Source: Eledone cirrhosa
Lineage: Eukaryota
DNA length: 64,000 nucleotides
NCBI GenBank assembly: GCA_964016885.1
Contig: OZ024744.1
Coordinates: 81,902,001 to 81,966,000, forward strand
Direction of reading: 5' to 3'
Shown here: piece after piece, positions 47,851 to 50,797 of the stretch
How the letters are laid out: every line of letters begins with the position of its first letter
Numbering within the stretch: position 1 is the first letter of the stretch
Notes under the pieces: generated by a model
Seen by the model: only the letters and a program-made list of their open reading frames with translations
Told to the model about the DNA's origin: nothing
The model's database searches: none
Translations under genes and position numbers: made by a program

Positions 47851-48735
47851 TAAATGTAAGTATGCATGTATACGTACATACATATATGTATACAGACGTA
47901 CAGTAGCATGCACATATATATATATATATATATATATATATATATATATATATACACATATATATACATATGCATACAGGTACACATACATATATGCACG
48001 TATCAGTTTAGCGGCGCTAACGTCGCTTTGTTCGTTTGTAAACAAACCGAACAGCCTGAATTTATGCCATACGGTGTTAAGGCAACCACGTCACCTTTTT
48101 GTTCAACACTGACACAGGAACGATGTACTAGTTTCAAGCTTGTTAGCTATCATCAGCACCGTTTACCCATCTGCCAGATAGTTGAACGTTCGAAAGTATA
48201 TACTTTCCTTATGAAAATTAACGGCTGAGCAGCCTAATTTGCATATTGAGTGAGCTAAATCGGTTAGGCATACCGAAAACGATAAATTGAAACAAAATGA
48301 AAACGAAATTTCATTTCTCACTCTTAGTATGGCACTTACTTAAATGTAAGTATGCATGTATACGTACATACATATATGTATACAGACGTACAGTAGCATG
48401 CACATATATATATATATATATATATATATACACATATATATACATATGCATACAGGTACACATACATATATGCACGTATCAGTTTAGCGGCGCTAACGTC
48501 GCTTTGTTCGTTTGTAAACAAACCGAACAGCCTGAATTTATGCCATACGGTGTTAAGGCAACCACGTCACCTTTTTGTTCAACACTGACACAGGAACGAT
48601 GTACTAGTTTCAAGCTTGTTAGCTATCATCAGCACCGTTTACCCATCTGCCAGATAGTTGAACGTTCGAAAGTATATACTTTCCTGCCATACTAAGAGTG
48701 AGAAATGAAATTTCGTTTTCATTTTGTTTCAATTT
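47851..48735 (-). mobile_element. Head-to-tail tandem of the CTAG-family HHR element (HHRs at 48121-48161 and 48597-48637)
   Basis: Units start at 47851 and 48341. Minus: cggtg-CTGATGA-tAGCT-aaca-AGCT-t-GAAA-CTAG-TA-catcg. Confidence 0.85.
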
Positions 48736-48950
48736 ATATATATATATATATATATATATGTAGATAAATCTACCAAAATATACGGTAGTGTTCAATCCGT
48801 ATGAAGAACTCAATGTAATCCAAATATCATGAAAAGAGAAGATGTATTCACAATTTTTTCGATGAAAAACACAGGAAAACAGAGTCAAGATAAATTAATA
48901 AAAACAATGAATAAAAACAAAGAAACAGTTCCTTATATTAAAAAAAATCA

Positions 48951-49082
48951 TCATTTTACGATCGTTTCTAGGATATATATGTGTGTGTTGGTATGTATAT
49001 CATATAGATCTATGTAAAAGTTTTACAAACTATCAGAGGGAATATACATACCTACACATATATATGCTGTCTTCAGAAATAA
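48951..49082 (-). ncRNA. Hammerhead with long stem II
   Basis: ttattt-CTGAAGA...GAAAC-GATC-GTA-aaatga. Same family as 5111-5264. Confidence 0.65.
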
Positions 49083-49195
49083 TTATTTATTCATTGTTTT
49101 TACTAATTTATATATATATATATATATATATATATATATATATATATATATATATATATATATATATATATATATATATATATATATATATATAA

Positions 49196-50040
49196 GTTGA
49201 AATAAAATGAAAACGAAATTTCATTTCTCACTCTTAGTACGGCACTTACTTAAATGTAAGTATGTGTGTATACGTACATACATATATGTATACAGACGTA
49301 CAGTAGCATGCATATATATATATATATATATATATATATATATATATATATATATATATATACATACAGGTACAATACATATATGCACGTATCAGTTTAG
49401 CGGACGCTTATTATAACGCCGCTTTGTTCGTTTGTAAACAAACTGAACAGCCTGAATTTTATGCCGTACGGTGTTAAGGCAACCACGTCACCTTTTTGTT
49501 CAACATTGACACAGGAACGATGTACTAGTTTCAAGCTTGTTAGCTATCATCAGCACCGTATACCCTTCTGCCAGATAGTTGAACGTTCGAAAGTATATAC
49601 TTTCCTTATGAAAATTAACGGCTGAGCAGCCTAATTTGCATATCGAGGTAACTCACTCGATATGCAAATTAGGCTGCTCAGCCGTTAATTTTCATAAGGA
49701 AAGTATATACTTTCGAACGTTCAACTATCTGGCAGAAGGGTATACGGTGCTGATGATAGCTAACAAGCTTGAAACTAGTACATCGTTCCTGTGTCAGTGT
49801 TGAACAAAAAGGTGACGTGGTTGCCTTAACACCGTACGGCATAAAATTCAGGCTGTTCAGTTTGTTTACAAACGAACAAAGCGGCGTTATAATAAGCGTC
49901 CGCTAAACTGATACGTGCATATATGTATGTGTACCTGTATGTATATATATATATATATATATATATATATATATATATATGCATGCTACTGTACGTCTGT
50001 ATACATATATGTATGTACGTATACACACATACTTACATTT
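49196..50040. mobile_element. ~400-bp-arm palindrome of the CTAG-family element (HHRs at 49518-49558 minus, 49745-49785 plus)
   Basis: Centre gcatatcgag-gtaactca-ctcgatatgc at about 49650. Confidence 0.85.
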
Positions 50041-50303
50041 ATATATATATATATATAAATATATATATATATATATATATATATATATATATATATATAT
50101 ATATATATATATATATATATATATATATATATATATATATATATATATATATATATATGTATATGTATATATAAATATATAATATATGTATATATATATA
50201 TATATATACATATATATGTATATGTATATATAAATATATGATATATGTATATATATGTATGTATACAAATAGACATGTATATATAATTTTATTATATATA
50301 TAT

Positions 50304-50797
50304 ATGTAAGTATGTATGTATACGTACATACATATATGTATACAAACGTACAGTAGTATGTATATATATATACATACATGCGCACATATATATATATGCA
50401 CGTATCGGTTTACCAAACATTTATTATAATGCTCGGTTTGTTTGTTTGTAAACAAACAAACAGCCCGAATTACGCCGTACAGTGTTTAGGCTACCACGTC
50501 ACCTTGTTGTTCAACACTGACACAGGAACGATGTACTAGTTTCAAGCTTATTAGCTATCGTCAGCATCGTATACCTTACCGCCAGATGGTTGAGCGCCTG
50601 AAAGTATATACTTTCCTTATGCATATTAACGGCAGATATATATACGTGCATACATATATGTGTGCATGTATGTGTATATATACATACTACTGTACGTCTG
50701 TATACATATATGTATGTACGTATACATACATACTTACATTTAAGTAAGTGCCGTACTAAGAGTGAGAAATGAAATTTCGTTTCATTCTATTCCATTT
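50304..50797 (-). mobile_element. Diverged CTAG-family copy (HHR at 50529-50569) with an inverted terminal fragment
   Basis: cgatg-CTGACGA...GAAACTAGTA-catcg. Confidence 0.75.

Follow-up and report, generated by a model that had tools for sequence, protein, structure and literature searches.

Non-LTR retrozymes were defined in PMC7229834, the main text of which describes units of 150–450 bp that accumulate as circles, proposes that tandem cDNA is copied from these circles, and names PLEs as candidates. Cleavage, release of a monomer, circle formation and reverse transcription make up the retrozyme model set out in that text. The first-pass annotation of the DNA studied here arrived at the same life cycle; the idea is sound and already published. 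A second account (bioRxiv 10.64898/2026.07.22.740005), in its main text, derives retrozymes from pLTRs, gives units of 51–972 bp, considers unequal crossing-over as a route of local expansion and does not settle how retrozymes are mobilised; eight of its nine Xenopus retrozyme dimers stayed uncleaved in vitro. The main texts of both sources call the mobilising enzyme of animal retrozymes and the origin of their arrays unresolved.

PLE insertions, as described in the main texts of PMC8557442 and PMC3846280, target (TA)n and have inverted arms, with a tail of 30–40 bp at one end. According to the main text of PMC11167929, a PLE protein both cuts the two strands and extends them, and two adjacent internal start sites define the tail; in the PAc system studied there, hammerhead cleavage is dispensable and the main substrate is unprocessed RNA. 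How PLEs make tandem, inverted, tailed insertions is stated to be open in the main texts of this literature.

The window analysed here (the whole 64,000-nucleotide stretch) contains a repeat family that, judged on testable features, is a non-LTR retrozyme and that behaves like a non-autonomous PLE. The class is known; the anatomy of its insertions is a useful new handle on two mechanisms.

The hammerhead unit and its genomic family

A descriptor scan found six type I hammerhead motifs in the window, five between 48 and 51 kb and one near 34753, in agreement with the first-pass annotation. Two tandem motifs on the minus strand, 48119–48163 and 48595–48639, are of a G-U stem-I type and lie 476 nt apart from cleavage site to cleavage site, again as annotated. 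The others are at 49517–49559 (minus strand), 49744–49786 (plus), 50528–50570 (minus, A-U stem-I type) and 34752–34794 (minus, U-G stem-I type). The motif at 48119–48163 matches Rfam HH9 at 18.5 bits, under the gathering score of 52; the whole-window Rfam scan was dominated by TA-repeat microRNA matches.

The full unit, a predicted RNA monomer running from cleavage site to cleavage site, occupies 48126–48601 on the minus strand. All unit positions below refer to this 476-nt reference, in ribozyme sense, with the predicted cleavage site as origin. Its frames hold only low-complexity stop-to-stop stretches, so the unit is non-coding; GC content is below 50% (0.32 at window 48001–50000), and the fold z-score is -8.1, to which a TA-rich hairpin contributes part. 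Unit lengths are mostly 420–540 nt, with younger copies at ~455–540 nt and an older subfamily at ~420–430 nt. A 34-nt core pattern has 11,864 and 11,221 exact matches on the two strands of the 3.0-Gb genome (23,085 together) and the reversed control has 0, so the motif is not a chance one. The family thus has the make-up of a retrozyme: short tandem units, each with a type I hammerhead, forming dimers to multimers that are dispersed and high in copy number.

Stem I of the motif comprises 6 bp, a UAA/UAU bulge and a long extension. Stem II is short, with 4 bp on top of a U-U pair, and stem III is a 2-bp palindrome. The motif had been described as a minimal hammerhead, but its form is that of a canonical type I; assignment to the PLE minimal type, which needs a helix II of 7–8 bp and a helix I of 4–5 bp, was rejected. 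The annotated palindromic CTAG of stem III is confirmed and reads GAAA-CTAG-TA. Two copies of this segment are predicted to pair as a 6-bp duplex, which makes it plausible that adjacent hammerheads cleave as dimers.

All three annotated stem-I variants (CGGTG/CATCG, CGATG/CATCG and CGTTG/CAGCG) were found. Among 294 hammerheads at 83 loci, 222 are of the G-U type, 42 U-G, 7 A-U and 23 rare variants; the core is kept in most of these copies and is conserved across subfamilies that are only ~70–85% identical. With the long extension included, a 29-pair structure has 95.6% of its cells paired, against 30–42% in slid controls, in 42 aligned copies hand-picked from 100 distinct ones. Only two of the 29 pairs change on both sides, and this measure is not better than in shuffles. 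The covariation noted in stem I is therefore genuine but weak: it concerns one pair, is inherited by subfamily, and reflects a handful of inherited changes.

The window also contains hammerhead-like motifs from other families, near 5585, 6673, 10495, 27181/28255 and 32901/33064, two of them as diverging pairs; a further one at 47120–47200 (plus strand), read by eye, differs in having a very long stem II. Elsewhere the window holds an 891-aa open frame at 15809–18484 (minus strand), which we take to resemble an LTR-retrotransposon pol, and a strongly skewed CA/CT-rich satellite of ~9 kb at 55014–64000.

Two arms, two fixed ends and one variable junction

The copies in the window belong to four separate insertions, in each of which two arms diverge from a central junction. 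Element 1 has a minus-strand arm of 1.7 tandem units (47851–48685; outer end at unit 261, inner end at 393), which we call the S arm, and a short inverted T arm (48685–48737, plus strand; unit 268–320) that runs into (TA)n; a (TA)n tract at 47787–47850 flanks the other side. Element 2 consists of a T arm (49192–49647, minus) and an S arm (49649–50041, plus), 273 nt of the latter being 100% complementary to the former. Element 3, of the older subfamily, has an S arm at 50304–50636 (minus) that carries the hammerhead at 50528–50570, and an inverted T arm at 50637–50799 (plus) followed by (AC)n. Element 4, of the older ~425-nt subfamily, has a T arm at 34482–34876 (minus) with the hammerhead at 34752–34794 and a short inverted arm at 34877–34945 (plus) whose degenerate S-like end is a weak call. 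Similar (TA)n tracts lie at 48738–48760, 49108–49191 and 50042–50300, and a T-end fragment of the older subfamily lies at 13560–13668 (plus; start approximate) and has no hammerhead.

A perfect palindrome with 183-nt arms (34083–34458) directly adjoins element 4. At 43390–44330 and 47398–47790 lies a second non-coding family, likewise flanked by (TA)n and built of two inverted arms; one of its copies ends in the TA tract that holds element 1.

The S and T ends are fixed. Where (TA)n follows, the S outer end falls at unit 258 in 18 of 41 cases and at 261 in 12, and the T outer end at unit 320 in 44 of 60 and at 316 in 13. The distance between them, the 'tail', is ~59–62 nt; element 1 contains an internal copy of it (48282–48344, minus; unit 258–320) with two predicted hairpins, the S site being in the loop of the first. 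Both strands of this S hairpin (unit 252–268, window 48334–48350) carry GTAAGT, a splice-donor-like sequence, in back-to-back orientation; introns are known to be retained in PLEs. Genome-wide, exact ends of the youngest subfamily running into TATATA number 737 for S and 1,045 for T.

S and T ends are also strictly paired. In the first 288 Mb of one contig, with 71 S and 100 T ends among the matches listed and pairing done by coordinates, all 43 outward-facing pairs within 12 kb join an S to a T; S+S and T+T pairs number 0 each. These 43 insertions are 124–8,193 nt long (median 1,323). At 34 loci anchored instead on the hammerhead, both ends could be called in 17 elements and all 17 are S+T, the S call being weak in two. 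Six young arrays outside the window have the same diverging arms, with up to 18 hammerheads per insertion; single arms reach 16 hammerheads and span 0.1 to 16 units. Among 49 T-anchored loci, partly read by eye, 34 have an S arm, 11 are single-armed, three have an opposite arm ending elsewhere and one runs into a gap.

This anatomy is that of a non-autonomous PLE: an inverted, 5'-truncated arm placed head to head, targeting of microsatellite or AT-rich sequence, and two fixed 3' ends with a tail at one end only, the tail being longer than 30–40 nt. Because (TA)n lies on both flanks, a target-site duplication is unreadable. The PLE end signature is found on every well-resolved two-armed insertion, among hundreds of near-identical young copies, and so links the spread of the retrozyme with PLE enzymes through the structure of its insertions, not through co-occurrence.

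The first-pass annotation had read the copies as permuted, and this as a sign of a circle. In fact the outer ends are fixed at S and T, and the variation is confined to the inner junction. Permutation at random from a circle was accordingly rejected. The outer ends mark two fixed sites at which reverse transcription starts, so the permutation argument for a circle fails.

Of 34 inner junctions examined, 31 could be resolved. Twenty-one junctions have no insert, with overlaps of 0–16 nt (mean 3.0 nt, against 0.8 by chance), and ten have inserts of 1–34 nt, several of which are local duplications. The 62 inner ends so mapped range over unit 12–460, all of them more than 10 nt away from the cleavage site; a single arm outside this set (L168) does start there. 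Searched genome-wide, arms that start no more than ~13 nt from the cleavage site gave 353 matches; a similar but not identical comparison scan at another unit position gave 503. Read by eye, 19 of the first 100 of the 353 start at the cleavage site or 1 nt before it, where 11–14 were expected. Arms thus almost always pass through the cleavage site: a cleaved linear monomer was rejected as the main template and is at most a minor one. Only 41 copies genome-wide leave the unit just downstream of T, so 3' ends are fixed and 5' ends scattered.

Enzyme, template and rival explanations

The genome is rich in PLE remnants, with 55,634 first-look candidates for one endonuclease. A decayed PLE of a very abundant family lies in the window at 44965–46860. 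Its RT and endonuclease, encoded on the minus strand, have frameshifts; it has one short arm in inverted orientation, its two ends are ~33 nt apart, and a hammerhead-like motif with a U3 core variant was read in it by eye. Its 45254–46860 segment and 30 loci of its family have no native similarity to the unit, which was nearby or inserted at four of the 30. A young PLE family, reached from a loose contig end, is a 3.6-kb (3,596-bp) tandem repeat with an intact 785-aa ORF and 412 pattern matches. Like the retrozyme, it is built of two arms with fixed ends, here ~118 nt apart, and is flanked by (TA)n; its loci (L179–L198, for example L181:3249–5606) have a 1.2-kb TA-rich inter-ORF region, and the ~118-nt tail is unusually long. 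Compared with the unit, that inter-ORF region gave no clear similarity, with a weak score in its TA-rich part on both strands. Both PLE ORFs are, we presume from their motifs, Neptune-like; neither was named by Pfam, and PDB gave nothing significant. Similarity of the unit to an autonomous PLE was absent from the two families compared, in a genome that holds many more.

It had also been considered that the unit might always be attached to a PLE ORF. The unit frames and an upstream survey gave no ORF within the unit or natively joined to it. Three genome-wide scans for branches near unit 321–345, 336–350 and 395–410 (matches read: 41 of 41, the first 100 of 503, and 77 of 77) gave no recurrent foreign sequence, only one-off junctions or junctions with the unit's own opposite strand. 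These negative scans indicate that the retrozyme unit is free-standing. Two candidate partners were rejected: a second loose contig end, which proved to be a single-copy flank, and L076, a PLE with the unit inserted antisense. At L076:3800–6870 the antisense retrozyme has been copied with its host as two arms, the passenger being duplicated. At L051, L067 and L070, retrozyme insertions adjoin 5'-truncated copies of one PLE family, and at L051 the retrozyme sits between that PLE's two diverging arms.

Arrays are mostly homogeneous. Across 131 units the median distance is 0 within an element and 3 between elements. In the 21 arrays with at least three full units there are 112 singleton variants and 20 that are partly shared; 14 arrays have no variant common to only some units and seven do. 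A single array (L078) supplies 13 of the 20 shared variants, and one aberrant unit of L124 supplies 51 of the 112 singletons. Private variants are fixed in every unit of L070, L102, L118 and L123. The longest arrays are among the least diverged, and the youngest elements (L034, L036 and L111) are long and nearly invariant on both arms. Elements of the same SNP haplotype have different unit lengths (474, 476, 478 and ~482), each near-uniform inside the element and across both of its arms. All this fits one-step synthesis from one unit read repeatedly. Exceptions are L078, which alternates two unit types with 13 differences shared, L109, with a block of five identical variant units, and L170+107 and L068, which have an identical variant on both arms, in L170+107 with a three-unit periodicity. 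Variants on both arms need a multimeric template rather than a single monomer circle, so that multimeric templates, or else unequal exchange at a later stage, must play a part as well.

With moderate confidence, we favour the view that the two-armed insertions are each written into (TA)n in one event by a PLE endonuclease/RT acting in trans, probably on circular RNA. The tandem arm would be transcribed, neighbouring hammerheads would cut as dimers, and a host ligase would close monomers and sometimes multimers. By analogy with PLE biochemistry, a dimer of the PLE protein would bind the S–T region and cut both (TA)n strands, and one cDNA would be primed from each DNA end, at S and at T, ~60 nt apart. 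Each cDNA would pass back through the hammerhead site for 0.1–16 units, as the DNA structure shows, and stop at random. The junctions suggest that the cDNA ends would then be joined head to head via microhomology or short templated inserts. Read-through together with mostly homogeneous long arms is better evidence of a circle than permutation, and it is indirect. Several results count against the model: the searches yielded no sequence-related autonomous partner, seven of 21 arrays have partly shared variants, 11 of 49 loci are single-armed and three have an opposite arm ending elsewhere, and arms starting at the cleavage site are in slight excess. So do the dispensable cleavage in PAc, the uncleaved Xenopus dimers and a tail longer than the published 30–40 nt. 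Tandem genomic copies yield a circle-like junction, so divergent RT-PCR alone cannot show a circle.

More tentatively, and at somewhat less than an even chance, the arrays may be products of single-step double rolling-circle reverse transcription by two coupled PLE enzymes on one ribozyme-made RNA circle. From the two fixed starts, each enzyme would extend one side of the double-strand break for many turns, after which the two cDNAs would be united head to head. If this is true, the insertions are a genomic record of circular RNA as a template of a PLE enzyme, and the same route explains the tandem-plus-inverted structure of PLEs themselves.

The main rival to circular RNA, which we consider unlikely, keeps two-site insertion by a PLE but has the enzyme copy long read-through RNA that was transcribed from an existing array and never cleaved; copying could then do without the hammerhead, and circles, if made, would be by-products. 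Read-through of the cleavage site fits this equally well, the both-arm variants of L170+107 and L068 require several different units per template, and PAc, in the main text of PMC11167929, uses unprocessed RNA. The different near-uniform unit lengths within one haplotype speak against it, as they point to a one-unit bottleneck at most generations. Linear copying would, moreover, shorten the arms each round if the terminal T lacks needed downstream sequence, and young arms nonetheless reach 14–16 hammerheads. Nor does a dispensable hammerhead sit well with a core conserved across ~70–85% identical subfamilies.

It is improbable that PLEs insert short two-armed copies whose arms then expand in place, like minisatellites, by unequal crossing-over. 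The two-unit periodicity of L078, the five-unit block of L109 and the three-unit periodicity of L170+107 are what such growth would leave. Against this, older arrays are mostly star-like (112 singletons to 20 shared variants), array length apparently does not rise with age, and L034, L036 and L111, the youngest, are already long and near-invariant on both arms. The insertion anatomy also speaks against slow local growth as the principal origin of the arrays.

That the palindromes are long-read fold-back or assembly artefacts is hardly credible: the fully complementary 273-nt arms of element 2 would suit it, but arms are asymmetric, the S/T rule is strict, junctions have inserts and microhomology, old diverged copies share the two-arm form, and among contigs from another public run, 30 have a T end that leads into TA and four joints between opposite strands are seen, so that an assembly artefact is not the explanation.

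Under the favoured model of a PLE enzyme acting in trans, a short RNA with two mapped start sites offers a handle for a direct test of circle versus linear template.

Comparison with known systems

In LINE-1 twin priming, two primers are used per target site, giving inversion and inner-junction microhomology, and the second start is variable. In the retrozyme family both start sites are fixed.

The hammerhead resembles those of PLE pLTRs (PMC4209133, main text) in its very short palindromic stem III, which suits dimeric folding. The minimal hammerheads described there have a helix II of 7–8 bp and a helix I of 4–5 bp; here helix II is short, and helix I has 6 bp with a bulge and a long extension. 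The U-U at the base of stem II is shared with HHR_Amex2 of the axolotl.

Like the metazoan non-LTR retrozymes in the main texts of Cervera & de la Peña 2020 (PMC7229834) and Li et al. 2026, the family has non-coding, low-GC units with a type I hammerhead, thousands of copies, a short palindromic stem III and coexistence with PLEs. Its unit of 420–540 nt is above the 150–450 bp range in the text of PMC7229834 and within the 51–972 bp of the preprint's. The retrozymes of PMC7229834 accumulate as circular RNA; for the present family such RNA is predicted. Those texts describe retrozymes as simple direct tandems; here there are inverted arms, two strictly paired fixed ends and insertion into (TA)n. 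Among the open-access papers brought up by literature searches, none tells, in its listing or consulted text, of retrozyme arrays whose inverted arms are paired; the supplements of PMC7229834 and of the preprint may show inverted arrays.

The closest match in insertion anatomy is with the EN+ PLEs Neptune, Naiad and Poseidon, which in the main texts of PMC8557442, PMC3846280 and PMC11167929 likewise have partial tandems, a head-to-head inverted 5'-truncated arm, a tail at one end, microsatellite targeting and a hammerhead upstream of the ends. Unlike those elements, the retrozyme has no ORF, its tail is ~59–62 nt, and its arms are built of up to 16 short units.
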